The notes under the pieces were generated by a model. That model was not told where the DNA came from and did not search any database. It worked only from the letters and a program-made list of their open reading frames with translations. Shown piece by piece: positions 40,700-62,485 of a DNA stretch of 64,000 bases. The position numbers and the translations under genes are program-made. The stretch is taken from positions 60,280 to 124,279 of IMG/VR virus record IMGVR_UViG_3300036792_000284; one strand, given 5' to 3'. Positions within the stretch are counted from its first letter, which is position 1. Each line of letters starts with the position of its first letter. Origin of the DNA: a virus.

Positions 40700-40901
40700 G
40701 GGGCACCACGGCGGCCACTGCTGCCTGCAGCAGGTCGATAACGTGCTGCAGGGCGGCCTGGTCCGCGGAGTAGCCGGCGTACCCGGGCCTGCCGGCCAGC
40801 TCCGCCTTGACGCCGGCCAGGTAGCCGCAGACCCCCAGGGGGTGCAGCTCTTCTGGCCGCTTCCGCAGCGGCTCCCTGTCATACCCCGGCCCCATGCCCA
40901 T
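40692..40901 (-). CDS. Hypothetical protein
   Basis: Preceded by conserved leader and promoter. Confidence 0.6.
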   Translation of the reverse strand: MGMGPGYDREPLRKRPEELHPLGVCGYLAGVKAELAGRPGYAGYSADQAALQHVIDLLQAAVAAVVPRG

Positions 40902-40983
40902 GTGTGCCTGCCCTTCGCCTTGAAGACGAGACTGCCCCGCCAGATGAAAGCATAGCGGGGCAGTTTACTTGAGTCAAGTAACT

Positions 40984-41223
40984 CTAGGGGAAGGCGGGGG
41001 CACTGGCCCTGCAGTAGATGCCGTGTATCAGGGCGTCGGCGTCCCCGCCGAGGCGGGTCACCTCCGCCTTCAGCTCGGCGGCCACCGCCAGGGCGCCGGC
41101 GTACGTCAGGCCCGGGGCCTCGGCGGCCTGCTCCAGCACCTCGCCGTACATGCCGGCCTCGTAGGCGGTCAGGCCGGCCAGCGCGGTCAGCAGGGCCTCG
41201 GATGTCTTCAGGCGCGGAGCCAC
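40984..41223 (-). CDS. Hypothetical protein
   Basis: GGGAGG SD, GTG start. Confidence 0.55.
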   Translation of the reverse strand: MAPRLKTSEALLTALAGLTAYEAGMYGEVLEQAAEAPGLTYAGALAVAAELKAEVTRLGGDADALIHGIYCRASAPAFP

Positions 41224-41347
41224 GGGTACCTCCCGGTGTCGTCCGGATCGAGGGGACAGCCGGCCCGGCGGCCAGGGAGGCAAATCAAGCGACTCGATTT
41301 GTTAACCCTCAACCCTGGCCAAAGACAAGCTTTTATACGCCTAACGC

Positions 41348-41617
41348 TCATGATGTTGATCCGTCATCCATCAGCACGTCCCAGGAGCTGGCCCCCGCGG
41401 GCGCCGGCAGGCCTTCCCCGGCCAGCCGCAGTGCCGTCTCCGCGACCAGCCGCAGCGCCGCGGTGAGCGACGCAGAGCCCTGCTGGCCTGCGGAAAGGCG
41501 CATCTCCAGGCCCTCTCTCAGCAACTGGGACATGGGCACGCCCTCAGCCGCCGCGGCCTTGCGGAGACGCTCGTCGGTCTCCGGGTCGAGGTGCAGGAGG
41601 TACCCGCCTTTGCCCAT
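41348..41617 (-). CDS. Ribbon-helix-helix (CopG/Arc-like) DNA-binding protein
   Basis: YLLHLDPETDERLRKAAAAEGVPMSQLLREGLE. Confidence 0.75.
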   Translation of the reverse strand: MGKGGYLLHLDPETDERLRKAAAAEGVPMSQLLREGLEMRLSAGQQGSASLTAALRLVAETALRLAGEGLPAPAGASSWDVLMDDGSTS

Positions 41618-41675
41618 GGCACCAAGCTAGCAGGGGTGCTATATATATGCAAGCTAGCTATCACCCCTATATAAC

Positions 41676-42182
41676 TTATGACTCTGCGTTGCCCGGCCGC
41701 CACGACATGGCGTCAATCCACGGGTAAGTATCAACTTCCGCTTGAGACTCCGGCAAGGTACGCCCGAGGTGATCTGGAATCAGTCCCGGAAGATTCTGCC
41801 CAGATTCTTCACCGCAGAACAAGGCCAGTGTTTCTGGCGGCAGGTACCCGCTCACCTCGACGGTGCGCCCGGCCAGCCCCCCGACGAACTCCGCCGCGTC
41901 CTCGATGTCGCGGGCCTGTTCGTCGGCGAACCGGAAGGAGAACCCGCTTACCTCCACCCTGACAGGTCCGGAGCGCTGCCCGAACTGGGTCATGTGCAAG
42001 ACGGCCCTGGAGGCTGTAACCGGGACCGGGTCCTCAGGCGAGCTGCACACGCAGCCGAAGCGGATCTCCGGAACCATGGCATCAGGCGAGCCGCACGGGC
42101 ACCACACGGCGCCGACATGGCCCGGAGGGACAGTCATCCGGTTGCCGCAGGCGGGGCAGGCGTAGTCGGCGGTGGGGGCCAC
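41676..42182 (-). CDS. Hypothetical protein with N-terminal Zn ribbon
   Basis: CPACG...WCPCG. Confidence 0.55.
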   Translation of the reverse strand: MAPTADYACPACGNRMTVPPGHVGAVWCPCGSPDAMVPEIRFGCVCSSPEDPVPVTASRAVLHMTQFGQRSGPVRVEVSGFSFRFADEQARDIEDAAEFVGGLAGRTVEVSGYLPPETLALFCGEESGQNLPGLIPDHLGRTLPESQAEVDTYPWIDAMSWRPGNAES

Positions 42183-42211
42183 GGCTCAAGCCTAGACAGG
42201 CGGGCGGGCGA

Positions 42212-42247
42212 GGGCGGCGCCTTAATGAGCACCGAACGGCGCCGCCC
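42212..42247. terminator. Stem-loop
   Basis: Perfect 10-bp arms GGGCGGCGCC/GGCGCCGCCC. Confidence 0.55.
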
Positions 42248-42419
42248 TCGCTATATCCCGCGCGGTGGGCGCCGCCTGGTCGAAGGGCGGCACGCGGGGG
42301 AGCAGAAACCGAGGCTCCGTTTGCGGCGGCGTGCCTCCAGGCCCTGCGCGGCCCACGCTAGCAGGGCAGCTGCGCTGCGCGCAGGCGGAAAAGATTTATC
42401 AGTCGCGGGCGGACTACCA

Positions 42420-42513
42420 GCCGCGGCGGTCCGGTGGAACGGGACTCCGGATATATATGTCCCCGGCCGTTCGGCGGGACCCGGATATATATAAATTTGC
42501 CGCGGCGGTCCGG
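42420..42513. repeat. Nested direct repeats around ATATATAT boxes (origin or terminus candidate)
   Basis: GCCGCGGCGGTCCGG at 42420 and 42499; GGGAC(T)CCGGATATATAT at 42441 and 42476. Confidence 0.7.
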
Positions 42514-42643
42514 CACACACCTAAGCACCCGCGGAGGCGAGCCTCTGACCTACCCGGATGGGACCCGGACGACGCGGCCCCGCCGCGCGCGGGCCCGCCA
42601 GCATGCCGGCGGGGCGCCCCGGGCGAGGCGCCCCGCCCGCGGG

Positions 42644-42886
42644 CTAGGCCCTGGCCTCCCGCACTATGGCTTTGCACATCCACGGCATCCCGTGACCGTC
42701 CGCGTCCACATAGAGCAAGTCACACGCCCCGTAGCGCGCGCCCACGCTGGCCTCCCGCACTATGGCCAGGGCCTCACTGTCGTTAGGCGCCCCGGTAACC
42801 AGCGTTACCAGGTCATCCCCCGTCATGGCTTCACGCGCGCGCGAGTCACCCGCGCGCGCCGCTGCTAGCTTCTGCTGTGCTGTCAT
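42644..42886 (-). CDS. Leaderless hypothetical protein
   Basis: ATG 6 nt after -10 TACGAT. Confidence 0.6.
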   Translation of the reverse strand: MTAQQKLAAARAGDSRAREAMTGDDLVTLVTGAPNDSEALAIVREASVGARYGACDLLYVDADGHGMPWMCKAIVREARA

Positions 42887-42947
42887 AGGCCCATCGTAGG
42901 CGCGTGGCTTGACTCTGGTCAAGTGCCTACCCTACGGTGGGCCCATG
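42884..42947. promoter_or_regulatory. Symmetric bidirectional promoter
   Basis: One palindrome supplies both -35 boxes; TACGAT (minus) and TACGGT (plus), each 18 nt from -35 and 6 nt from an ATG. Confidence 0.8.
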
Positions 42948-43178
42948 ACTAAAGCACAAGCGCGCCGCATGGCTGCAGCAAACGCACGCCTGATGGGCCC
43001 TAGGGTGCCGGGTGGCACGTACCGCAGCGCGTGGAGCGACGAGACGTACACGGTAGAGGCCATGTGGTGCACCGTCGGCGACGCGTGGCCATGGGTACGC
43101 ATACGTACCGCAGCTGGCGAGGTACGCCAGCACTGTACGCCATGGGACGCGCGCGACATCGTGGTTAACCTCCCCTAG
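42945..43178 (+). CDS. Leaderless hypothetical protein (only convincing plus-strand gene)
   Basis: ATG 6 nt after -10 TACGGT; followed by a hairpin. Confidence 0.65.
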   Translation: MTKAQARRMAAANARLMGPRVPGGTYRSAWSDETYTVEAMWCTVGDAWPWVRIRTAAGEVRQHCTPWDARDIVVNLP

Positions 43179-43192
43179 CCGAGCAACGCCCA

Positions 43193-43224
43193 TAGGGCCC
43201 GCACCGATGTCGGTGCGGGCCCTA
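43193..43224. terminator. Perfect 15-bp inverted repeat
   Basis: TAGGGCCCGCACCGA-TG-TCGGTGCGGGCCCTA. Confidence 0.65.
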
Positions 43225-43230
43225 TTCATG

Positions 43231-43302
43231 CCTGGAGGCCTGGAGGCCTGGAGGCCTGGAGGCCTGGAGGCCTGGAGGCCTGGAGGCCTGGAGGCCTGGA
43301 GG
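43231..43302. repeat. Tandem repeat (CCTGGAGG)x9
   Basis: 72 nt counted directly; stray copies near 43337-43353 and 43879. Confidence 0.97.
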
Positions 43303-43309
43303 CATGGCT

Positions 43310-43339
43310 AGGGCCCGCTAGGACGTCCTAGCGGGCCCT
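43310..43339. repeat. Perfect 30-bp palindrome
   Basis: AGGGCCCGCTAGGACGTCCTAGCGGGCCCT. Confidence 0.9.
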
Positions 43340-43354
43340 GGAGGCGCCTGGAGG

Positions 43355-43762
43355 CTACGGAGCGATGCGCGCCACGCGGTAGCCGTAGTCAGTGAGCTTG
43401 ACCGTAAGCGCGTCGCCGACTACGCGCGCCGTCCGGCCGGAGTCTGCCTCGCTCACGATGCGCTGTACCTCGCCAGCGGTCCGGCCTAGGGCCCGCAGCA
43501 TGAGGGTTAGCGGTCCGTAGGCATACCACGTGTGGTGAACGTTGCTGGCGCCGGCGGTACCGCAGCGGTACGCGCTAACCCGCTTACCATCGATGTCTGC
43601 CTCATAGCAGACCTGCCATTCTTCAGCGTCATGCTGCAGCGTGGCGAGGTACGCCTCCACGCTAGTCGCCGGCATCGTGCGGACGTCGACATCGCGTGCT
43701 GTCTCGCCCGGTATCCATGACCGTACGGTTACCTCTGACTCTAGAACTAGGGTGCCGCTCAT
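43355..43762 (-). CDS. Hypothetical early protein
   Basis: Conserved leader and promoter. Confidence 0.65.
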   Translation of the reverse strand: MSGTLVLESEVTVRSWIPGETARDVDVRTMPATSVEAYLATLQHDAEEWQVCYEADIDGKRVSAYRCGTAGASNVHHTWYAYGPLTLMLRALGRTAGEVQRIVSEADSGRTARVVGDALTVKLTDYGYRVARIAP

Positions 43763-43898
43763 TGGGTGCCTGCTCTCCGTTGCTCGGAATGATGAAACCA
43801 GCATAGGCATATGGCTTGACTCTGGTCAAGACACGCCTATGCCCGGTAGGGGTTACCTACCGGGCGAGGCGCACGGGCCCTGGAGGCCTGGAGGGTGC

Positions 43899-44195
43899 CT
43901 ACATCACGTCAAGCGGGATGTGCCTCCACGCGTTCGCGCGCTCTGCCGCAGCCTCCCCGGGGAACGTGTCCCCTTCCGGTACCGCGTAGGCGTGCGCGTG
44001 GATGTCCGCCGCGGGAATGGTGCCCAGAGGGTTTACGACGTCCGCGGCGATGCGCGCCGCGTGCTCTTCCGACACGATGCCCTGCACACGGGAGTCTAGG
44101 TAAAACGTGGGCGTGCCGCGGGACCCCTCCCACGTGACGCCGTGACGGTCGGTTTCATGAGTGAGCACTCGCACGTGTACGGCGTAGAGGGTCAT
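43899..44195 (-). CDS. Hypothetical early protein
   Basis: ATGA overlap. Confidence 0.6.
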   Translation of the reverse strand: MTLYAVHVRVLTHETDRHGVTWEGSRGTPTFYLDSRVQGIVSEEHAARIAADVVNPLGTIPAADIHAHAYAVPEGDTFPGEAAAERANAWRHIPLDVM

Positions 44196-44380
44196 GACTG
44201 GTCATCCCCTGCAAGCAGGTAGGCGCCGGCAGGAACACCGAACGCGATGCGGAGGATCTGCGCGTGCGGCGCGAACATGTCCGCCAGACAGTAGGAGTCG
44301 CTCATTTCGTCAAGCGCTGCTGCTAGTACCTCGCTCACCCGCGCGCGGTCTGCGGGTGTGAATTCCTGCCTGTCTTCCAT
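44192..44380 (-). CDS. Hypothetical early protein
   Basis: Leader variant AAAGGCAGGTACG. Confidence 0.6.
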   Translation of the reverse strand: MEDRQEFTPADRARVSEVLAAALDEMSDSYCLADMFAPHAQILRIAFGVPAGAYLLAGDDQS

Positions 44381-44444
44381 CGTACCTGCCTTTGTTCGTC
44401 GGTAACCCCACCGTACGCCCATGGCTTGACTCTGGTCAAGCGTG

Positions 44445-46091: not shown

Positions 46092-46185
46092 TGGGTGCCT
46101 GCCTTTGCTCGGTTGCTGTTGCCTGCAGCGTACGCGTATGGCTTGACTCTGGTCAAGCGTGGCTAGCTGCCTGGCACACGGCAGC

Positions 46186-46259: not shown

Positions 46260-46616
46260 CTAGTGCCTGCCGTACCGGGCCCGCGGGTTACCGACGTGGC
46301 TTGATTCTTGTGCGAACCGTGCCGCGTCGATACCGCTCATGCCGTGCATGAGCAAGGCAGCGAGCAAGCGCGCCGCACCCTCCGCGCGCTCCCGCACGCC
46401 GGCGAGGCGTTCGCGCGCGACGATGGCGCGCGCCTCTGCGGGGCTAATGCCGGCCTCGCACCACTCGCACATGAGATCCGGACCGCTCCCGCCCACGTAC
46501 CGGCCGTGGCCGCAGTAGCCGCCGTAGTCGCGGAACTCAGGGTCGTTTGAGTCGTCGCGGTCGTCCGCCATCCCGCCCGGTCCGTACACGTCCGAATAGG
46601 TCGCGTAGTCGCTCAT
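46260..46616 (-). CDS. Hypothetical protein
   Basis: Conserved leader; YCGHG...CEWC. Confidence 0.6.
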   Translation of the reverse strand: MSDYATYSDVYGPGGMADDRDDSNDPEFRDYGGYCGHGRYVGGSGPDLMCEWCEAGISPAEARAIVARERLAGVRERAEGAARLLAALLMHGMSGIDAARFAQESSHVGNPRARYGRH

Positions 46617-46822
46617 TTGGTGCCTGCCTTTGCTGCGGTCCGGACGTGCTTGATAGTTGCCATGATGGCCGCGCGGGAGGGTGCCGCGCAGTTGGCGCCG
46701 GCCCATGCCTCTAGGCCGTCCGCCTCTGCCAGCAGGTCAAGCGCGCGCCGCGTTGCGCCGGCATGCGCGGCTGTTTTGGCTAGCGCAACTACCGCCGCCG
46801 TCCTGTCGTTGCGAAACTGCAT
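46613..46822 (-). CDS. Hypothetical Ala-rich protein
   Basis: Conserved leader. Confidence 0.55.
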   Translation of the reverse strand: MQFRNDRTAAVVALAKTAAHAGATRRALDLLAEADGLEAWAGANCAAPSRAAIMATIKHVRTAAKAGTK

Positions 46823-46850
46823 TGTGCCTGCCCTTTTCTAGGTTGTCGTT

Positions 46851-47331: not shown

Positions 47332-47532
47332 TCACCTGCAGCTTTCGGCGTAGTACCGCTTGACCGTCCGAGGGTCGCGGAGGCAGGCACGGGCGATTTC
47401 AGCCCACGGCGCCCCGTTGTCTCTGGCCGCGCGGATAGCCGCAACTAGGCGCGGTTTCATCGCTGCGCGCATCCCATCGTGAGCGTAGACACGTCCGGCC
47501 GCGCGCAGCGTGCTCCACTCTTCATCGGTCAT
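47332..47532 (-). CDS. Small HTH protein
   Basis: LVAAIRAARDNGAPWAEIARACLRDPRTVKRYY. Confidence 0.65.
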   Translation of the reverse strand: MTDEEWSTLRAAGRVYAHDGMRAAMKPRLVAAIRAARDNGAPWAEIARACLRDPRTVKRYYAESCR

Positions 47533-47780: not shown

Positions 47781-47845
47781 AGGGTGCCTGCCCTTCTAGG
47801 TTGCTCACAGCGTACGCGTATGGCTTGACTCTGGTCAAGACATGA

Positions 47846-48167: not shown

Positions 48168-49238
48168 CTAGACCGTGACCAGCTTACGGTCTAGCACCCT
48201 GGCCAGGACGTCAAGCGCGTTCGCGTCCTCGCCCGCGGTCTTGCCGGTCACCATGTTGAGGAGGTTGCGCTCCATGCGACCCCCGCCGGCGCCGGCCGCG
48301 CCGGTAACCTTGCGCTGCCAGGTCCGGTACGTGTTGTCAAGCTGCAGCACGCCGAACGCGGTTCCCGCCCACGGCTTCACCTTGGGGTCGTGGTTCCACA
48401 TCGCCTCGAACGTGTCGCGGACCTTAACCGCGTTCGTGTACTTGATTCCGCCCGTGCTGCTCTTGGGGTCGCGCGGGGGAACCGGCGCCATCTCGTCAAG
48501 CCACGCCGTGAAGTCTTTCGACGTGACATCGATCGCCTGCAGGTCCGCGGCGGCGTGGGCGAAGTCGTCGCCGGCCTGGTACACCAGCCCTAGCGCGTTG
48601 CGCACCTCGGAGATACGCCCCGCCGAATTGCGCGAGTGCTTCACCTTGAGTTTTGTAAGCGCGCTGCCGAGTGCCGCAGACAGCGTGTTGTCGCAAACGA
48701 CACCCTCCACGCCAGTTGCGTACGTGCTCGCCAGCGAACCGTCGACGGAGGTAGCCGCGACGATGTACGGCGCGAATCCGTACCCGCCCACTTCCAGCCC
48801 GCTTCCCGCTAGCTTCGCTTGCAGGAATGCGACTCCGCGCTTACGGAGCAGGCCGACGGACGCGACGCCCAGTTCTCCGCGCGACGTGTCGAGAATGGCC
48901 GCGATCTGGTCCGCGGTCCACTTCTGGTACCCGTGCACCTGGTAGCCGCTCTTGAACACGCCGAGAATGTCACCCGTGTCAGGGGTGACGATGGCCTGTC
49001 GCTCCGGGTCCTCCGTCACCTGGCGGTTGCCGTCGGCATCCTCGAACTGCGCGAAGATTTTAGCCGAGACGAAAGGCACGTCCAGAATGCGGCGCACCTC
49101 CGCCTCCGGTACGGGCCCGTCAAAGTGTGACCCGTCGGTCATGTACTCGCCCGACGCCGCCCACCAGGCCGGCCCGCGCTCGTCGGTGTACCCGATGCGG
49201 ATATTTGCCTGTAGCCATTCGAGAGATTCGCGGCTCAT
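48168..49238 (-). CDS. DUF932 family phage/plasmid protein (TIGR03299-like)
   Basis: GDILGVFKSGYQVH, ATSVDGS......VVCDNTL..AL, KVKHSRNS, GTAFG. Confidence 0.85.
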   Translation of the reverse strand: MSRESLEWLQANIRIGYTDERGPAWWAASGEYMTDGSHFDGPVPEAEVRRILDVPFVSAKIFAQFEDADGNRQVTEDPERQAIVTPDTGDILGVFKSGYQVHGYQKWTADQIAAILDTSRGELGVASVGLLRKRGVAFLQAKLAGSGLEVGGYGFAPYIVAATSVDGSLASTYATGVEGVVCDNTLSAALGSALTKLKVKHSRNSAGRISEVRNALGLVYQAGDDFAHAAADLQAIDVTSKDFTAWLDEMAPVPPRDPKSSTGGIKYTNAVKVRDTFEAMWNHDPKVKPWAGTAFGVLQLDNTYRTWQRKVTGAAGAGGGRMERNLLNMVTGKTAGEDANALDVLARVLDRKLVTV

Positions 49239-49313
49239 TGGGTGCCTGCCCTTCCGTCCGCCCGGGGTGCCCCGGGCTCTTAACTACAGTTAAGCCTAGC
49301 TGAGCTGTATCTG

Positions 49314-50693
49314 TCAAGTACTTGCAGAGACAGATCCGTCAGGATTGCGCACGGGCGCGACCAGGTAAGCGACGCGCGTACGGTCCGCGCGCTCGAATCC
49401 GGCTACCTCCATGCCCGGGGTCGACGCCTCGCGCCAGGTGAGCACCTGCCCGGCGTCGTGCAGGACCGCGGCGCGCGCGTCGGCGCGCGTGGCGTAGCGG
49501 GTCCCTAGATCCTGCGGGGCGTGCATCTCCCGCGTCCCGTACGGCTGCACACGGCGCGACACGCGAAACGGGCCGGGGTCGCGTGTAATGGCAGGCATGG
49601 CCGCAATAACGGCGATCTGCGACTCTGCAGTATCCGGCGCCCCTGCAGGCGTAGCCGGAGGCAGGGCGGCCGGGCAGTCGGAGCACTGCGCCGGCGTGCC
49701 GCGCCGCGAAGGATGCCGGCATGCCCCGCTAGCGGCAGCCATGCGCGCGCGCAGCGATCCGGGGTCGGGCTCCGACCCCGGATCGCCCGTGGCCGCCTGC
49801 AGTCGCTCGGCGCGCTGGTCACTCGCGGCTACAAATTCCGCGTGCGTGGCGGGCCCGCTACCCGTGATGATGTAGCGCAACGGCTCAGCATCACTGATAT
49901 TCGATTTATGCCGAGTTATCAGGCGCACGCGTTCGTCGTCCTTGGCCAGCTGGATAACGAACGCTAGCCGTACCGAGTTAAGCAGGCCCGCACTGCCGGC
50001 CACCTTGCCGTCTTTGGTCAGGTGGTGCAGCACCGCTAGCGCCACGTTCGCGCGGCGTGCGAACCTGCCGAGCGCAACCATGGTGCGCGTCGCGCCCTGC
50101 CTGCTGTCGATCGTGTAACCGTCGGATAGCACCGCAGACAGTGAGTCGGCAACGACCAATGCAACCGGGGGCCCGCCGATGGCGTTTAGTTTCTTGATTT
50201 CCGTCAGGATGGCCGGGCAGTCTTTCGGCAAGGTGACGGGGGAGTCGTCGCGCCACACACTCAGATCGTGAATGTAGCGGACGGCGCCCGCCTCGCCGGC
50301 CAGTTCGGGGTCTAGCCCGAACTCAGCGACCGCTACGGCGATAGCCGCGCGAAAGCGGGGCGCCAAATCCTCGAATTGGTCGTCTTCGCCCGGGCCGGAG
50401 ATCCACACCACGCGGCCGGGGTCGCGCCTGATGGCCTGGTCCTCGTTGGCGAACGGCAAACCGAGCACGACGCGCGCGGCATGCGCGCAAAACAACATGC
50501 CCTTACCCGTCCCGCCGGCTGCCACGTAAACCGTAACGGACCCTACCGGGATGTAATCCGGCTGCAGCCAGCGCCGCTCAATGTACGGAATATGCGAGTA
50601 GGAAACGGCCGCTAGGTCGTCCCCGTCCTCCGGGGGGTCCAGCAGGAGATCAGGGGAGGCGTAGACGAGACGCTCCTCCGTCGGTTGTGTCAT
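49314..50693 (-). CDS. AAA_25 (RecA-like, RepA-type helicase) ATPase
   Basis: WLQPDYIPVGSVTVYVAAGGTGKG, GED, VVADSL, VLHHLTK, GSAGL.NSVR. Confidence 0.8.
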   Translation of the reverse strand: MTQPTEERLVYASPDLLLDPPEDGDDLAAVSYSHIPYIERRWLQPDYIPVGSVTVYVAAGGTGKGMLFCAHAARVVLGLPFANEDQAIRRDPGRVVWISGPGEDDQFEDLAPRFRAAIAVAVAEFGLDPELAGEAGAVRYIHDLSVWRDDSPVTLPKDCPAILTEIKKLNAIGGPPVALVVADSLSAVLSDGYTIDSRQGATRTMVALGRFARRANVALAVLHHLTKDGKVAGSAGLLNSVRLAFVIQLAKDDERVRLITRHKSNISDAEPLRYIITGSGPATHAEFVAASDQRAERLQAATGDPGSEPDPGSLRARMAAASGACRHPSRRGTPAQCSDCPAALPPATPAGAPDTAESQIAVIAAMPAITRDPGPFRVSRRVQPYGTREMHAPQDLGTRYATRADARAAVLHDAGQVLTWREASTPGMEVAGFERADRTRVAYLVAPVRNPDGSVSAST

Positions 50694-50772
50694 GATGCCT
50701 CACCTGTATGTGTTGGGTTGATGGATAGCTAGCCAGGGCATCCCGGGCACGGGAGCGCGTCGCGCTGTGAAC

Positions 50773-51369
50773 TTACCCGGTTGCCTTGACTCTGGTCAAG
50801 CGCGAAACCTCCGCGCTTAGTGACATGTGGTTGTGAAACTCTGCCTGGCCGGGAGGCAGCAGGAGGTCACCCGCGCGCAGCAGCACGGCCATAGGCGCCC
50901 CGGTGGCGATGTAGAGCGCGGCGGCGTCGGTCGGCGCCCCGGCTAGCTGGTCTGTCAGCTCGTGCGCCTGGACGTCTAGCAGGTGCGCAGCGCAATACAG
51001 GCGCCCGCGGTGCGCGCTCTCGGCGTCGCGGTGGCAGCTGTCACAGGTCCCGATCGCGACGCGCAGCGCTTCAACCGGCATCGTCTTGCGCTTGCGGTAC
51101 TCGTCAAAGACCGTAGCCACGCGCGAGAGCCGACGGTTAGCCTCGCCGGCTGCTTTCTTGATGGCGACGTCACGCCGCAGCACTTCGGCATCGAACTTGC
51201 CGCGCCACATGACCAGCATCCCGTAGTCCGCCGACGCGTCGGCGATGTGCCGCTCGAACTCGCGCCGGCTCTCCGCGTTGCCGCGCTCCATCCACTGCCG
51301 CTCGCACCGTGCGAGGAACGCGGCCAGCTCGGCCCGCTCCGCGTCGTTGTCGAGTGAGTCTCTGCTCAC
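50773..51369 (-). CDS. Hypothetical protein with Zn finger
   Basis: CDSCH...YCAAH; promoter palindrome embedded in the last codons. Confidence 0.6.
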   Translation of the reverse strand: MSRDSLDNDAERAELAAFLARCERQWMERGNAESRREFERHIADASADYGMLVMWRGKFDAEVLRRDVAIKKAAGEANRRLSRVATVFDEYRKRKTMPVEALRVAIGTCDSCHRDAESAHRGRLYCAAHLLDVQAHELTDQLAGAPTDAAALYIATGAPMAVLLRAGDLLLPPGQAEFHNHMSLSAEVSRLTRVKATG

Positions 51370-51527
51370 TACTTCCACCCCTCCCGCTCCGCTTGCGCGC
51401 GGACGTCGGCCGGCGTGCGGAGATCGACCTTCGGCGCGTGGTCGAACATGGCCTCGAACTGCTCTTGTGAGTGCAGCATCCCTTCCGGGGTGTTGCTCAC
51501 CTGCCCGGTAACGGTCGCGGTGCTCAT
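51369..51527 (-). CDS. Hypothetical peptide
   Basis: Conserved leader and promoter. Confidence 0.6.
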   Translation of the reverse strand: MSTATVTGQVSNTPEGMLHSQEQFEAMFDHAPKVDLRTPADVRAQAEREGWK

Positions 51528-51590
51528 TGGGTGCCTGCCCTTCGGTTGTGCTTGACTCAAGACTAAGCGATGCCTTGACTTGAGTCAAGC

Positions 51591-51815
51591 CTATGACCAG
51601 GCGAACGCGGCCAGAGCTGCAGCGATGCGCGCGGCGTTCGCCGTTTCGTCGTGGTCGTGCGCCTCGGCCAGCCGGCGCGCTACGTGCTTAGCGGAGGTGT
51701 ACTCGCTCACATAGGAGCAGTTCGGCGAGGTGCACCGGACGAAAAACCCATACGCGTCGAGCACCACCTCACAGTTAGCGGTGGTGATGACCACGGTTGC
51801 CGTTGCCGTGCTCAT
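51591..51815 (-). CDS. Hypothetical protein with C2H2-like motif
   Basis: CTSPNC...AEAH. Confidence 0.55.
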   Translation of the reverse strand: MSTATATVVITTANCEVVLDAYGFFVRCTSPNCSYVSEYTSAKHVARRLAEAHDHDETANAARIAAALAAFAWS

Positions 51816-52033
51816 GACGCGCTTACCGCCTCTTGCTCAGCAGCCCACGCGCGCAGCTCGCCCGGCAGGGCGCGCGCCTCGCCGTCGTCGTACACGGGGT
51901 CTGCCTCGCAATGGCCGGCAACTTCGCGGGCCGCGCGTGGCCGGTCTGCCGGCGCCGCGCACATCAGATCGGACGCGCAGCCCGCGTGACCGTCATCCTC
52001 TAGCCACATGGCCAGCTGGTGGATAGTCATCAT
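51812..52033 (-). CDS. Hypothetical protein
   Basis: ATGA overlaps. Confidence 0.5.
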   Translation of the reverse strand: MMTIHQLAMWLEDDGHAGCASDLMCAAPADRPRAAREVAGHCEADPVYDDGEARALPGELRAWAAEQEAVSAS

Positions 52034-52503
52034 GACGTCGCTACCGCCTTGGCCGCGTCGGGGTTGTCCGCCCACGCCTGCGCGTCAGGGAATGCGGACA
52101 GGGGGATAGAGCCGGCCGACGATCGGCGCTGTACCGCGGTGTACGCCTCGCCGTCGACCAGGTACCACGCCTCGCCGTCCTTGCCCGCGAACATCACGCC
52201 GGCCATGCCCGCGGGTACGCCTTCCTTCCAGTCGCCGAACGCGGAGCGCGCGAACATCTCGCCCGCGGCCATCGATGCCTTGCGCGCGTCGTCCTGCGCT
52301 TGGCTCTGCGCGGCTCCGTCGCGGCACCTGTCGCCGTGCACCCCGCGCAGCCCGCCCAGCCGCGCATAGCACGGCGAGCACAACGCCGGCGCCGGGCAGT
52401 AGGGAAGCCCGCTCACCTTGTACGCACAGGGGCGCTTGACCGCACCCGGAGAGCTGCAGGCGTCGCATACCAGCCCGCCGCCTCTTGCGTAGCAGTAACC
52501 CAT
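52030..52503 (-). CDS. Cys-rich hypothetical protein
   Basis: CDAC, YCPAPALCSPC; conserved leader. Confidence 0.6.
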   Translation of the reverse strand: MGYCYARGGGLVCDACSSPGAVKRPCAYKVSGLPYCPAPALCSPCYARLGGLRGVHGDRCRDGAAQSQAQDDARKASMAAGEMFARSAFGDWKEGVPAGMAGVMFAGKDGEAWYLVDGEAYTAVQRRSSAGSIPLSAFPDAQAWADNPDAAKAVATS

Positions 52504-52573
52504 GATCCGTGCCTGCCTTTCGTTGCCTGACTTGTGACCAGCCTAAGGCATGGCTTGACTTGAGTCAAGCAAA

Positions 52574-52611
52574 GAGCTAGCCCGCTCCGCGGTCACGGAG
52601 CGGGCTAGCTC
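52574..52611 (-). terminator. Stem-loop just upstream of a promoter palindrome
   Basis: 16-bp arms GAGCTAGCCCGCTCCG/CGGAGCGGGCTAGCTC. Confidence 0.7.
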
Positions 52612-52624
52612 AGGGGGGTACAGC

Positions 52625-52816
52625 TCAGCCAGGCAGGAACCGCGTACCTACCTGCTCAGGCTGGTAAGCGGGGTCCGGGTCTGTCCCGATCCTCACCCCG
52701 CCAGCCGAGACGATCCGCCTGAAACGCTTACGCGCGTCGGCTAGCGCCTGCTCAGGGGTCACCCACCCGCCCAGCTCGCTGCGCCAGACGTAGCCTGCCG
52801 GCCATTCGAAAGCCAT
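52625..52816 (-). CDS. Hypothetical protein
   Basis: GGGGAG SD. Confidence 0.55.
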   Translation of the reverse strand: MAFEWPAGYVWRSELGGWVTPEQALADARKRFRRIVSAGGVRIGTDPDPAYQPEQVGTRFLPG

Positions 52817-52828
52817 GACTCCCCTACC

Positions 52829-53596
52829 TCAGCTCAGCGAAGCGGAGACGTACCGCTCAGCCTCTGCCCGCTCGCGCTCGGCGCGCGCCGCGTCGTCGCG
52901 CGTCTTGAACGTGCGGTCATTCGGCTCCCCCGGCCCGCTGCCCTCCGCGCACACGATGCGCCATTTGCTGTCGGCGTAGTTGCGGCTCACGCAGCCGCAC
53001 GCCCCGGAGGCGTACCGGACATTGGTCACGTACCAGCCGCCGTGACGCCACGGGGCATAGCTCGGGGTCCAGGTGTCCCCCCGGGCCTTGCGCTGCGCTG
53101 CGTCTTTGTACCCCAGGGTGCGGCACTCGTCCAGCGTGGCCGCGAACATGTCGTTTAGCATGCCCTCGAAGTACTCCCGGCCGCCTCCCCGCTTGCCGGT
53201 GAGGATGTAATGCCAGGAGATCGACTCAAACGCTACGTGCATCAGCGCGGGCCGGCCCTTGAACGTGGTAGGCCGTGACTTGACCGCCAGCCATTCGTCG
53301 GAGCATTCGCCCTGCTGGATGAAGCACAGCACCTGGCCGCTGCCGTCCTCCAGCGCGAACGCGGAACCGTTTGAGTAGTTGCCGAACGACAGCCAGCGCC
53401 GCAGCTCGTCACGCGAGGCGCACATGCGCACCTTGGCGCCCTCGAAAGGCGGGTCGTACGCGTCGCGAATCCAGGTGTTACGGGCGGCCACCTCGTCCCA
53501 CAGCGCGGCCAGCTGCGGCGGGACCGGCCGCGGGTCGGTCAGGGGGAGGCTGAACAGCTCTTCCCAGTTCTCAGTTTCGGTAGTGCTCGTCTTCAC
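52829..53596 (-). CDS. Hypothetical protein
   Basis: 255 aa; conserved leader and promoter. Confidence 0.65.
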   Translation of the reverse strand: MKTSTTETENWEELFSLPLTDPRPVPPQLAALWDEVAARNTWIRDAYDPPFEGAKVRMCASRDELRRWLSFGNYSNGSAFALEDGSGQVLCFIQQGECSDEWLAVKSRPTTFKGRPALMHVAFESISWHYILTGKRGGGREYFEGMLNDMFAATLDECRTLGYKDAAQRKARGDTWTPSYAPWRHGGWYVTNVRYASGACGCVSRNYADSKWRIVCAEGSGPGEPNDRTFKTRDDAARAERERAEAERYVSASLS

Positions 53597-53722
53597 GGGG
53601 TGCCTGCCCTTCGCTCGGTTGCCTGCAGCGCCAGCCTAAGGCATGGCTTGACTCAAGTCAAGCATTCCACGCACAGCGGGTGAGCCGTCGGAACCGCGCC
53701 CGCTACGCGTGGAATGCCCGCC

Positions 53723-54321: not shown

Positions 54322-54357
54322 CGTGTGCCTGCCTTTGCTCGGTTGCCTGCAGCCAGC

Positions 54358-55142: not shown

Positions 55143-55221
55143 CAGGTGCCCGCCCTTCGGTTGTCTCGGTTGCCTGCTTGCAGGGTAGTGCATGGCTTGA
55201 CTTGAGTCAAGAAACGAAAGC

Positions 55222-55689
55222 TTACCCCTTGACTAGCACCGCGAAGCTGTTGATGCCCACCCGCACCCCGTTCGTCCGCTTGCCTTTCGGCAGCAGGGCG
55301 GAGATGCGCCCGGTGGCTTCGGCCTGCTGCGGCTTAGCCTCCGGCACCAGCCGCGCATCCTCGTACTCGTGCCAGGTGCCTGAACGGTCGGCCCGGTAGA
55401 GGATCACCCGGGCGAAGCGGGTCACCTTGTCTACGGAGGTAAGCGAGCGGTACCCGTCTGCCAGCCAGCCGGCGATGCGCGCATCCATCTCGCGCTGGCG
55501 GTACAGCCCTTGAAGGAGGTAGATGGCAGTGTCCTCACGCTCACCCGCGATACCGGGGATCTTGCCCTTGAAAAAAGCGTTGTACGGGAATCCCTCGGCT
55601 TTGATGGCCTCCGCACGCAGCTGGGTGAACTCAGACAGCCATTCGGCCACCTGCTCTAGATCGTTGTAGTCCTTATTCCAGGTAAACAT
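55222..55689 (-). CDS. Hypothetical protein
   Basis: Conserved leader. Confidence 0.65.
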   Translation of the reverse strand: MFTWNKDYNDLEQVAEWLSEFTQLRAEAIKAEGFPYNAFFKGKIPGIAGEREDTAIYLLQGLYRQREMDARIAGWLADGYRSLTSVDKVTRFARVILYRADRSGTWHEYEDARLVPEAKPQQAEATGRISALLPKGKRTNGVRVGINSFAVLVKG

Positions 55690-55716
55690 AGGTGCCTGCC
55701 CTTCGGTTGACTGCTC

Positions 55717-56205: not shown

Positions 56206-56271
56206 GGGATGCCTGCCTTCCGGTTGTCTAAGCATCACCGTAATGCATGGCTTGACTTGAGTCAAGAAACA

Positions 56272-56327: not shown

Positions 56328-56411
56328 CTACTTGCTCGGCTTGGCGTGCTTCGGGTCGTAGTCGGGGTTGCCGGGCTTCTCTTCGCCCTCGTGGCTACCG
56401 CGTCCGTTCAT
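56328..56411 (-). CDS. 27-aa micropeptide in its own cassette
   Basis: MNGRGSHEGEEKPGNPDYDPKHAKPSK; own promoter, leader and terminator. Confidence 0.55.
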   Translation of the reverse strand: MNGRGSHEGEEKPGNPDYDPKHAKPSK

Positions 56412-56444
56412 TGGTGCCTGCCCTTCCGTTTGGTTGACTGCAGT

Positions 56445-57208: not shown

Positions 57209-57278
57209 TGGGTGCCTGCCCTTCGGTTGTGCCTGTGCGCCCAGCGTATGTGATGGCTTGACTTGAGTCAAGCACAAA

Positions 57279-57311: not shown

Positions 57312-57353
57312 CTGGCTTGCCGGCGGTCTACTCGTCGTCTGCGGTCCAGTCGG

Positions 57354-57590
57354 TCATGATGCCTCCAGCTCAATGCGGAACTTGTAGCCGGACTCGTGCA
57401 CCAGCTCGGTGCCGAGCGCAGCCGTGTGCAGCCGCCCGGCGAAGTCGTTGGCGTCCTTTTTCGTCGTGACGCCGTTGTCGGTCAGCACGTAGAACGCGGC
57501 GGTAGCCGCCTTGCGCGTCGTCGGGAACGGGCGCTGAGTCTTCTCCTGCCCTTGCGGAGTCACGCGGACTAGCTGATACGTGGATGCCAT
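57354..57590 (-). CDS. Hypothetical protein
   Basis: Conserved leader. Confidence 0.6.
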   Translation of the reverse strand: MASTYQLVRVTPQGQEKTQRPFPTTRKAATAAFYVLTDNGVTTKKDANDFAGRLHTAALGTELVHESGYKFRIELEAS

Positions 57591-57650
57591 GTGCCTGCCC
57601 TTCCTAATGAGCGAGGCGGCCAGCTGGCTTAGCTGGCCGCCTCTGTGCTG

Positions 57651-57830: not shown

Positions 57831-57893
57831 AGGTGCCTGCCCTGTGGAGTTGGGTTCCTACAAGGCCAAGCTTAGGTGATGTCTTGACTGGAG

Positions 57894-58528: not shown

Positions 58529-58749
58529 GGCTGGCCTCCGTCGATGAACGCAAGCCGCTCCGTGCCCGCCTCGGTCAGCGCCAGGCAGCCGGACCACTCC
58601 TCGTCGGTCTTCACCAGGCCGGCCTTCACCAGCCGGCCGAGCGCCGCCTTGCCCTTGCCGACGGAAACCGCCGTCTCCGGGCGCGGATGGGCGTTGTAGC
58701 CGACGTAGCGGAGCACCGCGTCGTCGCGCAGCTCGGCGAGGGTCATCAT
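58525..58749 (-). CDS. Winged-helix-like protein
   Basis: ALGRLVKAGLV...LALTEAG.ERL. Confidence 0.65.
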   Translation of the reverse strand: MMTLAELRDDAVLRYVGYNAHPRPETAVSVGKGKAALGRLVKAGLVKTDEEWSGCLALTEAGTERLAFIDGGQP

Positions 58750-59272: not shown

Positions 59273-59313
59273 CGGGTGCCTGCCCTCGGGTCGGTTTCGC
59301 TTACAGGTGCAGC

Positions 59314-59601
59314 CTATGCGTCATCTTGACTTGAGTCAAGTAGTAACCTGCCCGCCTTCAGGCACGCCCTGCCCTGGCCGGTCAGCTTGTAGCTCGTCTG
59401 CTTGGGCAGGGACACGACGCGGACCAGGCCAAGCCTCTTCAGCATGCGGGCACAGATCACGGCACGCTGCCGGCTAACGCCCGCCTCCTGCGCTACGTCC
59501 AGCGGAGTAACCGTGTACTGGCGGTCGATCGCAGCCGGCACCTTGCGTTCTGTCTCAGTCAGCACGCCCCAGGTCGCCGCGCTGTCATCGAACCCGGTCA
59601 C
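59314..59601 (-). CDS. MarR-like winged-helix DNA-binding protein
   Basis: LTETERKV, TPLDVAQEAGVSRQ...LKRLGLV...YKLTGQG. Confidence 0.75.
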   Translation of the reverse strand: MTGFDDSAATWGVLTETERKVPAAIDRQYTVTPLDVAQEAGVSRQRAVICARMLKRLGLVRVVSLPKQTSYKLTGQGRACLKAGRLLLDSSQDDA

Positions 59602-59873
59602 GGCGCTGCCACCGTCGGCTGTGTCTTCGCCTGCTCAGTGGTCAGCCACTCGCCGCGGTGCCCGCTGTCGTCGCCGTGCCGGTCCATCCGCAGCCAGCGG
59701 TCGGAGACCAGGCCGTGCACGACCCACATCTCGAACTCCTCCAGTGTCATGCCGGTGAACTCAAGCAGCGGGCCTTTATAGGGCGGGAGACCGTTCGCGC
59801 CCACCTGCGCTCGCGCGTAGCTGTTGAGCATGCGGCGGATCTTCCGGTCTGCGTCGTTGTCGTACACCCACAT
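59598..59873 (-). CDS. Hypothetical protein
   Basis: Coupled overlaps. Confidence 0.55.
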   Translation of the reverse strand: MWVYDNDADRKIRRMLNSYARAQVGANGLPPYKGPLLEFTGMTLEEFEMWVVHGLVSDRWLRMDRHGDDSGHRGEWLTTEQAKTQPTVAAP

Positions 59874-60265
59874 CAGCGCTGCCTGTTTCCCTTCCGGGCG
59901 TACCTCGCCAGCATGTCCGCCGACCCGGCCACGTGCGCTCCGTCGGCGAGCATCGCCTCGATGTCGTGGTCGCCTGTGGCGAGGCCGGCCAGGTCGGTAC
60001 CGCGCAGCGCGTTGGTGCCGATGACCAGGTGCGGGCGGACGATGATCTCGCCCACGATGAAATGGTGAGTCCACCTCGGCTCGTACACGCCGCGGACATG
60101 GTGGCCGCTGTCGTAGGTGAGCGGGTTGTCCTGGCCGCGGGTCATGCTCGCGCCGACGAAACTCACCATCCCCGGCCCCTGGTCCTGCACGTAGAGCCAC
60201 GCGGGCACGTGCCGCGCGTCCGGCCCGTACATCACCCGGGTCATGTCGCCGTAAATCTCATCCAT
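59873..60265 (-). CDS. Hypothetical protein
   Basis: Leader and promoter. Confidence 0.6.
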   Translation of the reverse strand: MDEIYGDMTRVMYGPDARHVPAWLYVQDQGPGMVSFVGASMTRGQDNPLTYDSGHHVRGVYEPRWTHHFIVGEIIVRPHLVIGTNALRGTDLAGLATGDHDIEAMLADGAHVAGSADMLARYARKGNRQR

Positions 60266-60326
60266 GGGCCTGCCCTTCCTCGGTTACAGGCCAAGCGTAC
60301 CTGTTGGCTTGACTCGGGTCAAGCAC

Positions 60327-60590
60327 TCAGATCGTGTTGCCGCTGTTGACGCTCACCGCGATGGCGGCCACCTGGGCGCCGGCGTGGCCGGCCAGCTGCA
60401 GCATCACGCCGTAGAGCGACGACAGGCAGGGCTGGCAGATGCGCGGTAGCTTTGCCTGGCCGCCCGGGGTGACCACCGGGACGTGCAGCCCGGGCGATCC
60501 GTCGTCGCCGCACAGCGCGCATTTGGTGCCGGGGAACATCAGCACCTGCGTCCGCCGGTCAGGCGCGCTCACGTGGCCCAGCCCTTCCAC
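60327..60590 (-). CDS. Zn-finger protein (start may be near 60572)
   Basis: CALC...ICQPC. Confidence 0.55.
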   Translation of the reverse strand: MEGLGHVSAPDRRTQVLMFPGTKCALCGDDGSPGLHVPVVTPGGQAKLPRICQPCLSSLYGVMLQLAGHAGAQVAAIAVSVNSGNTI

Positions 60591-60880
60591 GGCGTGTCGA
60601 TGTTCAGCGCGCGGGCACCCCGCAGCAGGATGGCCGAGCGCTCCGGACTGAACGCCGGCAGGCTCAGGTAGGCGAGAAAATCCGTCCGGGCCGCCTTGAG
60701 CAGGTGCCAGAGCCCGGTCAGGTGCGCCGCGTCGCGCTCGTCCTGGTCGGACATCACCCAGTCGCGGGAGGTCTCCCCGCTGGCCTTGCGCAGCAACTGT
60801 GCGAGCATCACCCGGTCATCGGGCTGCGCGGTCCGCAGCTCTATCCACAGCGTGTCCGGCTCGGCCTCTACGTCACACAT
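60569..60880 (-). CDS. Hypothetical protein
   Basis: GAGGAG SD; CGTAGTAG motif upstream. Confidence 0.55.
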   Translation of the reverse strand: MCDVEAEPDTLWIELRTAQPDDRVMLAQLLRKASGETSRDWVMSDQDERDAAHLTGLWHLLKAARTDFLAYLSLPAFSPERSAILLRGARALNIDTPWKGWAT

Positions 60881-60946
60881 ACGTGCCTGGCTCCTCACAG
60901 AGTTGAACCGGGGACCACCGCAGCCCCCGGTTCTTCCTACTACGGA

Positions 60947-61528
60947 TCAATCCTGCACTTCGGGGACAACGTGGTAATAACCGCCCTCGAACAGCGCGAC
61001 CGCCTGCGCCACGCGCGCGTCGTCCAGGGCGCGGATGTGCGCGTCGATGTTGCTCACGGTCGGCCGCCGCAGCACCCGGCCCGCTGCCCCGTCGGTAACC
61101 TCCAGCACGATGCACTGCGAGGCGTCGACCACCACGGCCAGGTCTGGGGACAGGTCCTGGCGGAAGATGTCCGGCTCACGGTCGGCCGGCGCCGGGTCGG
61201 CCGCCTCCGGGCCCTCGCCGAGCGCATTGCGCAGGCAGGCGTAGAGCGAGGCCACCTCGCCGTCGCGCGCCGCCCGCGGAAACCGCTCGCGCAGCCGGTC
61301 CCCGATCTGTCGCAGCTGCAGCCGTGCCTCCTCCAGGTCTGAGCGGTGCTCCTCGTACTCGAAGACGCTCGCGAGGCGTGCCATGGCTACCTCCGCCGTG
61401 TCCGCGCTGTCGACCTCGTAGCCGTCCACGAACATCTCGTAGAGGCTGTCCGCGCGCTGCTCTACCGCGTACCGCGGGGCGGCGTCCAGTGTCCAGCGCC
61501 GCCCCTGCCGCGTCCAGTTGTAGGTCAC
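60947..61528 (-). CDS. Hypothetical protein
   Basis: GTGA overlap. Confidence 0.55.
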   Translation of the reverse strand: MTYNWTRQGRRWTLDAAPRYAVEQRADSLYEMFVDGYEVDSADTAEVAMARLASVFEYEEHRSDLEEARLQLRQIGDRLRERFPRAARDGEVASLYACLRNALGEGPEAADPAPADREPDIFRQDLSPDLAVVVDASQCIVLEVTDGAAGRVLRRPTVSNIDAHIRALDDARVAQAVALFEGGYYHVVPEVQD

Positions 61529-61767
61529 CGCGTGCCCCGCAGCTCCCGGGCCTTGGCCCGCAGCAGGTCGGCCAGGGCGTCGCAGTCGTCGGCGTCCAGG
61601 TAGGCGTGCTTGCTGGTGGTGACCGCGGTCGAGTCGACCGTGAGCTTGGCCAGGTCGCCGATCTCGGCCGAGCGGACCGCCACGCCGACCTCGTCTTCGG
61701 TAAGGATGTCGGCCACCTTGGCCAGGTCGCCGCCCCACTCGTCTCGCATTCCGGGTGTAACTCGCAT
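61525..61767 (-). CDS. Hypothetical protein
   Basis: Conserved leader and promoter. Confidence 0.6.
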   Translation of the reverse strand: MRVTPGMRDEWGGDLAKVADILTEDEVGVAVRSAEIGDLAKLTVDSTAVTTSKHAYLDADDCDALADLLRAKARELRGTR

Positions 61768-61842
61768 CGGGTGCCTGCCCTTCGCTCGGTTGCTTACAAG
61801 CCCAGTCTACACCCATAGCTTGACTTGAGTCAAGACATAGAA

Positions 61843-61877
61843 CGACCCCGGAGCCGGCGGTATTGGCTCCGGGGTCG
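61843..61877 (-). terminator. Stem-loop
   Basis: 13-bp arms CGACCCCGGAGCC/GGCTCCGGGGTCG. Confidence 0.7.
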
Positions 61878-61888
61878 CGTCCCAGGGG

Positions 61889-62389
61889 TCAGCCGCGCAG
61901 TGCGGCCGGCTCGGCAACCGGCTGGCTGGCGGGCAGGGTGACGTCGTAGCAGCGGTTCGTGACATCGAACTTCACCGTCACGTCGCCGTTGGCGATGCGC
62001 ACGGTTGCGGCTATGCCCTCCATGCCCTCCGCGGCCCTCGCCGCGCGCATCAGCGCGTCGGCCAGGCTGGCCGCCAGGTGCGCGGACGTCAGCAGGGTGA
62101 ACGCCCGCGCGTTCGTCAGCCGGTAGTAGGTCGTCGTCTCGGCCGCCGGCTCCGGGGTCCCGTGCCAGCCGCCCACGAGGGCCAGGCCCTTGCGCAGGTG
62201 CTTGCAGAACAGGTCGTCTACGGTGAGGCCGGGCGTGCCCGCCAGGAGCTGTGCCCGGCGGTAGCGGAAGTCCTTGCACGGGCAGTAGGGGAGCTGCACG
62301 TGGTAGACCTCGGCCGGGTCGGACTCGGAACAGACCACTACCGCGGTCGGGAGGACTGCCATGTCCTGGGGTGTCTTGCCTGCTGGCAT
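61889..62389 (-). CDS. SWIM zinc-finger protein
   Basis: YHV...YCPCKDF...FCKHL; leader and promoter. Confidence 0.75.
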   Translation of the reverse strand: MPAGKTPQDMAVLPTAVVVCSESDPAEVYHVQLPYCPCKDFRYRRAQLLAGTPGLTVDDLFCKHLRKGLALVGGWHGTPEPAAETTTYYRLTNARAFTLLTSAHLAASLADALMRAARAAEGMEGIAATVRIANGDVTVKFDVTNRCYDVTLPASQPVAEPAALRG

Positions 62390-62485
62390 AGGGTGCCTGC
62401 CCTTCGGTCGGGATTAACCTGCGTAGGCTTCCAGCATACCAGGTTGCTTGACTCGGGTCAAGACTGGCGGCTCTAGGGAAAGCAA

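Follow-up and report, generated by a model that had tools for sequence, protein, structure and literature searches.

A start-associated sequence at presumed early genes of an uncultivated actinobacterial-type phage, with a candidate antisense hairpin partner in its relatives

The window analysed here is a 64-kb stretch of DNA, the final 64 kb of a 124,279-bp virus contig (G000) from IMG/VR record IMGVR_UViG_3300036792_000284; coordinates are window positions unless stated. The contig is linear, is estimated to be 82% complete and has about 69% G+C, with nearly all genes on the minus strand. An earlier note on this DNA claimed that a conserved leader precedes more than 20 early start codons. 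All 23 sites that it listed are real, and each lies on the minus strand, 0–8 nt upstream of the ATG or GTG of an open frame. The element they share, called the tag below, is the 15-mer GAAGGGCAGGCACCC (mRNA sense, minus strand), with the core GARRGG-C-AGG-CAC.

A promoter-like cassette lies upstream of 19 of the 23 sites, with a palindromic -35 element, TTGACnnnnGTCAA, followed after 17–18 nt by TAnnnT. Exact tags with a promoter upstream (all sites given here are on the minus strand) occupy 62391–62405 (GAAGGGCAGGCACCC; ATG 62389, 166 amino acids (aa)), 61769–61783 (ATG 61767, 80 aa), 57210–57224 (ATG 57208, 172 aa), 51529–51543 (ATG 51527, 52 aa) and 47782–47796 (ATG 47780, 83 aa). The exact tag at 49240–49254 precedes the ATG at 49238 of a 356-aa DUF932 protein, with a promoter (TTGACA-N17-TAGGCT) and a hairpin upstream; three relatives retain the tag core at the orthologous gene, where the spacer differs. 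At 53598–53612 an exact tag precedes a GTG (53596, 255 aa), and the module upstream of it (53614–53661) comprises a palindromic -35 element, TTGACTTGAGTCAA, at 53661–53648, the -10 box TAGGCT at 53638–53633 and a 5' leader element, GCAGGCAACCGAG, at 53626–53614.

Variant tags follow a promoter at ten further places. They are GAAGGGCAGGCCC at 60264–60278, which overlaps the ATG at 60265 (130 aa); CGAGGGCAGGCACCC at 59274–59288 (ATG 59272, 109 aa); ACAGGGCAGGCACCT at 57831–57845 (ATG 57830, 59 aa); GGAAGGCAGGCATCC at 56207–56221 (GTG 56205, 162 aa); GAAGGGCGGGCACCT at 55144–55158 (ATG 55142, 171 aa), where the 5' element GCAGGCAACCGAG is also found upstream; CAAAGGCAGGCACAC at 54323–54337 (ATG 54321, 70 aa); GAAAGGCAGGCACGG at 52507–52521 (ATG 52503, 157 aa); CAAAGGCAGGCACCC at 46093–46107 (ATG 46091, 128 aa); GGAGAGCAGGCACCC at 43764–43778 (ATG 43762, 135 aa); and a weak variant, CAAAGGCAGGTACG, at 44381–44394 (ATG 44380, 62 aa). 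The copy GAAGGGCAGGCACCA at 56412–56426 has a full promoter, and the frame that opens at its ATG (56411) is only 27 codons long (56328–56411; MNGRGSHEGEEKPGNPDYDPKHAKPSK). The last tagged gene ahead of the replication module carries GAAGGGCAGGCACAC at 40902–40916 (ATG 40901, 69 aa).

The earlier note also placed the tag on internal genes without a promoter, as is the case at the four sites that lack the cassette (57603, 55704, 46836 and 46632). Here GAAGGGCAGGCAC (57589–57603) stands directly before the ATG at 57590 (78 aa) and is preceded by a hairpin, GAAGGGCAGGCACCT (55690–55704) lies 27 nt past the upstream stop codon and serves the ATG at 55689 (155 aa), AAAGGGCAGGCACA (46822–46836) overlaps the ATG at 46822 (69 aa), and CAAAGGCAGGCACCA (46618–46632) precedes the ATG at 46616 (118 aa). 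Where a cassette is present, anything from 11 to 60 nt separates its -10 box from the tag, against 0–8 nt from tag to start. It is thus the start codon, and not the promoter, that the tag accompanies.

The 15-mer occurs nine times exactly and 27 times with up to three mismatches, against 5.5 expected; none of 100 shuffles reaches 27. Every match in the region with up to two mismatches adjoins a start codon. When the whole 124-kb contig was scanned, start-linked copies were confined to 40,902–62,405 of the window, in a single orientation. Structural and replication genes use other start-site sequences, and plain GGAGG, which is missing from the tag consensus as the earlier note stated, serves other genes of the same phage. 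Nearly every early gene without translational coupling carries the tag. In that region a gene behind an intergenic gap is tagged, and one that overlaps the upstream stop codon is not.

An exact-word scan of viral contigs retrieved three genomes of about 150 kb with multiple copies, G001 (with terminal repeats), G002 and G003, and a protein-based search added a fifth tagged genome, G005; the AAA_25 protein as query gave no further relatives. Three relatives hold 19, 14 and 17 tagged sites with up to two mismatches. Their orthologous early proteins are just 40–75% identical, with the tag core unchanged. More distant relatives (DUF932 identity of at most 53%, 55–61% G+C) are without the tag and have a plain Shine-Dalgarno sequence, GAAAGGA or GGAAGGGG, at the orthologous DUF932 start. 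The consensus from 120 sites in four genomes is G-A/g-A/g-G/a-G-G-C-A-G-G-C-A-C, and the spacer after GGCAGGCA is 0–8 nt, with modes at 4 and 1. ATG opens 99 of these 120 tagged genes (82.5%) and 85 of 164 other genes (52%; p = 9e-8), the untagged starts being our own crude gene calls.

An auxiliary element of the form (C)AACC(GA) often stands upstream of the tag, as the earlier note had said of CAACCGA: the 16 nt upstream contain AACC at 14 of 25 sites in this contig and at 58 of 120 in the four genomes together, against 2.7% of random 16-mers. Many leaders contain CAGGCA twice, about 10 nt apart. Two other readings of the tag were rejected. A small hairpin with GGG and CCC arms does not fit, as the relatives often have GGCAGGCAC directly before the ATG, without the CCC, and the AGG variants do not covary. 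The second codon is not part of the tag, AGC being equally common after tagged and untagged starts. What we observe is a class-specific, strongly selected tag at the ribosome-binding position in a phage of actinobacterial type with a genome of about 150 kb.

The nearest isolate by PolA and DnaB is Microbacterium phage Magritte (35–41% identity), in which the tag is not present, and megablast against the phage collection found no close isolate. The DUF932 protein matches 264 phage records, every one of them from an actinobacterial phage. Leaderless messages are frequent in Actinobacteria. The nearness to Magritte, the DUF932 records and the leaderless-type starts described below together led us to assume an actinobacterial host. 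GTDB genomes searched with promoter plus tag for a host or prophage returned scattered single chance matches only. For the 3' end of 16S rRNA we took the general actinobacterial type, ...GGAUCACCUCCUUUCU, as our working assumption, from which the tail of the actual host may differ.

With that tail, RNAduplex predicts 9 bp at -11.5 kcal/mol, versus -8.7 kcal/mol for GGAGG. The duplex consists of GAAGGG on 3'-CUUUCC-5' and AGG on 3'-UCC-5', with a bulged C between the two blocks. The three positions that face U toggle between A and G and are almost never a pyrimidine, and those that face C stay G. Minor purines number 48 of 270 at U-facing and 8 of 179 at C-facing positions (p = 1.6e-5, in site sets chosen without circularity). 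This pattern of toggling and fixed G makes the tag very probably a ribosome-binding site, and we think it likely that the tag recruits the 30S subunit through the predicted interrupted Shine-Dalgarno duplex.

The same duplex leaves part of the tag unaccounted for. With RRRGGnAGG and a start as the sole selection, 82 of 85 sites have C as n, and the three bases that come next are C (80 sites), A (77) and C (73). Across sites picked without reference to these bases, C7, C11, A12 and C13 are conserved at 86–96%, and substitutions at any of them leave the predicted 16S duplex unaltered. These four near-invariant bases are beyond the reach of 16S pairing. The tag resembles a Shine-Dalgarno sequence in position, spacing, complementarity to the 16S 3' end and wobble tolerance where it faces U. 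It differs in being interrupted by an invariant bulged C, in facing the CCUCC core with AGG only and the terminal CUUUCC with GARRGG in place of a continuous CCUCC match, in having four fixed bases outside the pairing positions where free variation would be usual, and in serving a single temporal gene class.

The earlier note was thus right that conservation exceeds what a Shine-Dalgarno sequence needs. Its word non-canonical is overstated, the tag being a good interrupted Shine-Dalgarno. Pairing to the anti-Shine-Dalgarno does not explain the tag fully, as the bulged C and the CAC are fixed without effect on the duplex. The start-linked conservation that 16S does not use leaves room for the second control layer that the note proposed; among the early proteins tested, nothing indicates that this layer is an RNase site or a protein operator.

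An RNA is the best candidate for a second reader. On the sense strand, every one of the four complete relatives has exactly one copy of GGTTGCCTGCC, a complement of the tag, and in all four this copy is located in a conserved hairpin loop of 20–23 nt. The stems are 13–16 bp long, all perfectly paired, and come in three different sequences. We compared them anchored at the loop, because MAFFT/RNAalifold misaligned stems of unequal length, and 9 of 13 anchored pairs had changed on both sides while the loop stayed almost constant. The next promoter cassette follows the hairpin in all four genomes, and a T-run follows it in two.

The loop is predicted to pair with tag positions 3–14, which include C7, C11, A12, C13 and C14, at -24 to -26 kcal/mol. 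Of the tag bases, G5, G6, G9 and G10 would take part in both pairings, with the loop and with 16S. Against all 120 leaders its mean energy is -24 to -29 kcal/mol, versus -15 to -19 kcal/mol for shuffled loops, and its best pairing site is the tag in 92 of the 120. G002 stands apart from the others in its tags (GAGAGG, CAACCAA) and equally in its loop (CCUUUC, UUGG), and the loop of a tag's own lineage pairs better in three of four comparisons.

The hairpin terminates an apparently non-coding stretch of 300–800 nt that follows a sigma-factor gene of the early region (L162:793-1545 in G001, L161:1080-1570 in G005, L064:927-1816 minus in G002 and L066:7876-8521 minus in G003). The stretch is partly conserved and has an early-type promoter in G002 and G003; blocks such as ACCTGGCGAACGCGTGAG and ACACCGCTACGGACCAGCGAAA are kept in all four genomes. 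Rfam gave no match in the window or at the relatives' hairpin loci. A metagenome scan yielded two true copies with known stems and three chance matches, and a 14-mer loop scan of viral contigs turned up nothing new among the matches listed.

On balance we consider it probable, if only slightly so, that the tag is a start-associated sequence (SAS), a class-specific ribosome-binding tag of presumed early genes that has an antisense hairpin partner. Whether the bases unread by 16S (C7, C11, A12, C13 and C14) are kept by a required complementarity to one phage hairpin loop seems to us an evenly balanced question, and the predicted loop–tag duplex suggests that they may be. The mechanism that we propose would have two steps. 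In the first, the 16S tail would bind the tag through its segments 3'-CUUUCC-5' (to GARRGG) and 3'-UCC-5' (to AGG), with the C between them bulged. In the second, the hairpin RNA, made from an early-type promoter, would pair through its loop with the tag, so that every tagged message would have its ribosome-binding site and 5' end covered. As the hairpin RNA accumulates, early translation would probably be damped or shut off for the whole set of messages at once.

In the contig phage the predicted partner would be a hairpin whose loop is complementary to GGGCAGGCAC. By synteny its locus should lie about 0.7 kb past the contig end, and the contig stops before the syntenic place, so the partner is expected here rather than observed. 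Candidates within the contig were rejected. The tRNA and non-coding RNA region (contig 48–54 kb) offers chance-level 8-mers with wobble only and no clean duplex, and a 10-mer complement at 47381–47390 is also at chance level, being one of 11 such one-mismatch matches on the contig sense strand.

Several points count against an antisense partner. Beyond chance matches, the complementary hairpin is absent from the window and from the whole 124-kb contig, and its presence in this phage is deduced from synteny and from the estimated completeness of 82%. Lineage matching is modest, and the G002 loop pairs equally well with the tags of other lineages. Part of the loop is predicted to pair with itself (GGU/GCC). 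The loop also fits the 5' leader element GCAGGCAACCGAG better than it fits the tag, which would make the 5' end of the mRNA a possible main target in place of the ribosome-binding site. There are just three independent stem versions, and the two extra metagenome copies gave no new stem. Finally, the tag is not obligatory, as a few genes behind the same promoters use GGAGG-type sites, a AGGTGAGGCAC variant or leaderless starts.

One rival dispenses with a dedicated reader. The tag would be a strong interrupted Shine-Dalgarno with a preferred spacer, its extra bases would reflect preferences intrinsic to the ribosome such as spacer composition and low structure, and the relatives' hairpin would be the fossil of an inverted leader kept as a terminator. 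The good predicted 16S duplex, the fitting start distance and the purine toggling, which suits rRNA pairing, all agree with this, as do the slightly higher accessibility of the tag than of random 12-mers (0.50 versus 0.43) and the T-run after two of the four hairpins. It leaves unexplained why CAC after AGG holds at 86–94% despite eighteen other possible non-pairing triplets, and why the bulged base is C at nearly every site though its identity leaves the duplex energy unchanged. Terminator loops are usually short and variable, whereas here a loop of 20–23 nt is conserved and the stems change. Other genes of the same phage, moreover, make do with plain GGAGG. We regard this rival as unlikely.

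Somewhat less likely again is a translational operator, read on the mRNA at CAGGCAC by a phage protein (in the manner of T4 RegA) or by a host protein. Conservation in excess of 16S pairing would suit such a reader, as would the doubled CAGGCA and an early region rich in proteins of unknown function. Against this, no RNA-binding family was found: 20 early proteins gave no Pfam family and 10 gave no PHROG family, in tests that did not extend to a genome-wide RegA/RegB search, and the S1 domain is absent from the four genomes. Nor does a protein reader predict a conserved complementary loop.

A site acting at the level of DNA, either an operator like the stoperators of Cluster A mycobacteriophages or a promoter element for a phage sigma factor that gives near-leaderless transcripts, is improbable. 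In its favour, all copies of the asymmetric tag point one way, the relatives have genes for two sigma-like proteins (one gene in the early region), and the same phage seemingly uses leaderless starts at a fixed distance elsewhere. Yet the start distance of 0–8 nt is unlike the fixed spacing of leaderless promoters in these genomes, and most sites already have a host-type promoter 11–60 nt upstream. Tags are limited to early genes and locked to start codons even inside operons, and the A/G toggling suits wobble pairing in RNA. A search for a single-subunit RNA polymerase found no match in the four genomes and none in control genomes either, and is uninformative. Least probable of all, and hardly to be expected, is an endoribonuclease processing site at which early Shine-Dalgarno sequences are cut to inactivate messages, as by T4 RegB: the tag is indeed class-specific and at the ribosome-binding site of early genes only, yet no nuclease candidate appeared among the proteins tested, and the complementary loop is unexplained unless a duplex-specific RNase acts after pairing, which would extend the antisense explanation.

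Other start types and genes of the window deserve a record of their own. Candidate leaderless messages follow the same palindromic early promoter cassette at 42922–42884 and 48114–48076 (minus), with the ATG 6–7 nt past the -10 box (about 42886 and 48078), and the relatives have several more such cassette-then-ATG candidates. Some ten middle or late genes across the contig have another start-linked word, CCGATTAG or CGATTGCC, about 8 nt ahead of the start codon, for example before starts 25597, 34495 and 34826 (minus) in the window, with more outside it. TAGTAAC, a double stop codon, recurs 6–7 nt before several starts. An alternative ribosome-binding word, ACAGGTGAGGCAC, is found at 50693–50710 (minus) before the AAA_25 ATPase gene (start 50693); the orthologue in three relatives has a tag or degenerate tag instead, and ACAGGTGAGGCAC recurs before other genes of G003.

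Minus-strand genes at 3567–6512, 37301–39007, 8228–9406 and 19372–21837 encode, respectively, a 981-aa radical SAM protein, a TraG/TrwB-like coupling ATPase, a beta-clamp homologue and a family A DNA polymerase. At 31158–31865 (minus) a gene weakly matches sigma-70 region 2, scoring below the curated cut-off, and three relatives have counterparts of it. The relatives also possess a stronger early-region sigma gene, which the contig lacks and which presumably lies past the contig end. The contig also carries 33 tRNA genes on the minus strand (contig 48,200–53,450, about 7–12 kb before the window start), two of them tRNA-Met (CAT).

Control of ribosome-binding sites by antisense RNAs that initiate pairing through a loop has precedents in IS10 RNA-OUT/RNA-IN and in phage P22 sar. 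As in these systems, the relatives' predicted hairpin has a stable stem that displays a loop complementary to the 5' leader and ribosome-binding site of its presumed target. Unlike them, one loop would here face 25–40 unlinked messages in trans through a common tag, rather than a single overlapping target encoded in cis. Class-wide, post-transcriptional shut-off of early messages is carried out in T4 by RegA and RegB, which likewise handle these messages as a class through their translation-initiation regions. The T4 readers are proteins with loosely defined sites; the candidate reader here is an RNA. The Cluster A stoperators differ in occurring genome-wide, late operons included, without a fixed start distance, whereas the tags are early-only and start-locked. 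Stoperators are bound by the phage immunity repressor, and no such repressor was identified here.

Closer parallels are the SAS elements of other actinobacterial phages. Cluster EF Microbacterium phages carry SAS and extended SAS (ESAS) elements with the sequence GGGAAAGGACCCC (Jacobs-Sera et al. 2020, PMC7302621; LordBart, PMC12859693). These too are repeats at the ribosome-binding position, far better conserved than is usual there and linked to a conserved upstream element in an actinobacterial phage; they share the frame GGG..AGG..CCC with the tag and differ from it in sequence and phage group. The SAS and ESAS of Cluster K mycobacteriophages (Pope et al. 2011, PMC3203893; the Adephagia study, PMC11373665; a survey, PMC12699233) were described in 2011, and papers of 2024–2025 still call their function undefined (PMC11373665, PMC12699233). 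Like the tag, the Cluster K SAS is an asymmetric repeat of 12–15 nt a few nucleotides before starts, in 10–25 copies of one orientation, confined to non-structural or early genes with a strong ATG preference. It has a Shine-Dalgarno-like core with invariant bases unpaired with 16S, and most copies stand behind a SigA-type promoter with an inverted repeat (the ESAS), as 19 of 23 do here.

There are differences too. The sequence here is GGGCAGGCACCC, with a 5' GAA extension, against GGGATAGGAGCCC in Cluster K; the published SAS consensus (GGGATAGGAGCCC or GGGAAAGGACCCC) is not matched here, and only the GGG..AGG..CCC frame is common to all three classes. The 16S duplex is interrupted by a bulged C here and by a U-U mismatch there. 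The inverted repeat overlaps the -35 box here, and the lineage is unrelated: uncultivated, about 150 kb, with its 33 tRNA genes. With the tag, the number of SAS classes that differ in sequence rises to three.

The likeness to Cluster K extends to the hairpin. A single reverse-orientation SAS copy per genome was reported in K1 phages without interpretation (Pope et al., PMC3203893), and the relatives here also have one reverse copy each. Phage Anaya (JF704106) has 16 forward SAS copies and one reverse copy, GGCCTCCTATCCC, at 59,870. We found that this copy lies on the sense strand within a hairpin loop of 10 nt, in the intergenic space that separates gp96 from gp97 (59,840–59,900; L289:39841-39901). 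The region is conserved in 138 Cluster K genomes; in Adephagia the intergenic hairpin is at about 58,650–58,710. In an alignment of the hairpin from seven genomes, 95.5% of cells are paired, against 31–50% in slid controls, three pairs show compensatory changes, and the loop, CCUCCUAUCC, is retained in five of the seven. That loop would pair with SAS base T5, which Pope et al. could not assign to 16S (PMC3203893). The searchable literature held no paper connecting SAS elements with antisense RNA.

We put forward more tentatively, as a possibility somewhat short of even, that SAS elements in general, those of Cluster K included, may be address tags read by one dedicated phage hairpin RNA with a complementary loop. 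A phage would on this view govern the translation of all genes of one temporal class through one small RNA, and the unusual conservation of the tag would record a double constraint, from the ribosome and from that RNA. In the five-genome comparison, part of the conservation pattern fits the 16S tail and the remainder fits a single conserved hairpin loop. If true, this would be regulon-wide control of translation by a phage-encoded RNA, and annotators of actinobacterial phages would gain a practical rule by which to recognise early genes and true start codons. Because Anaya shows the same arrangement, the idea can be tested in the tractable Mycobacterium smegmatis with phage recombineering.

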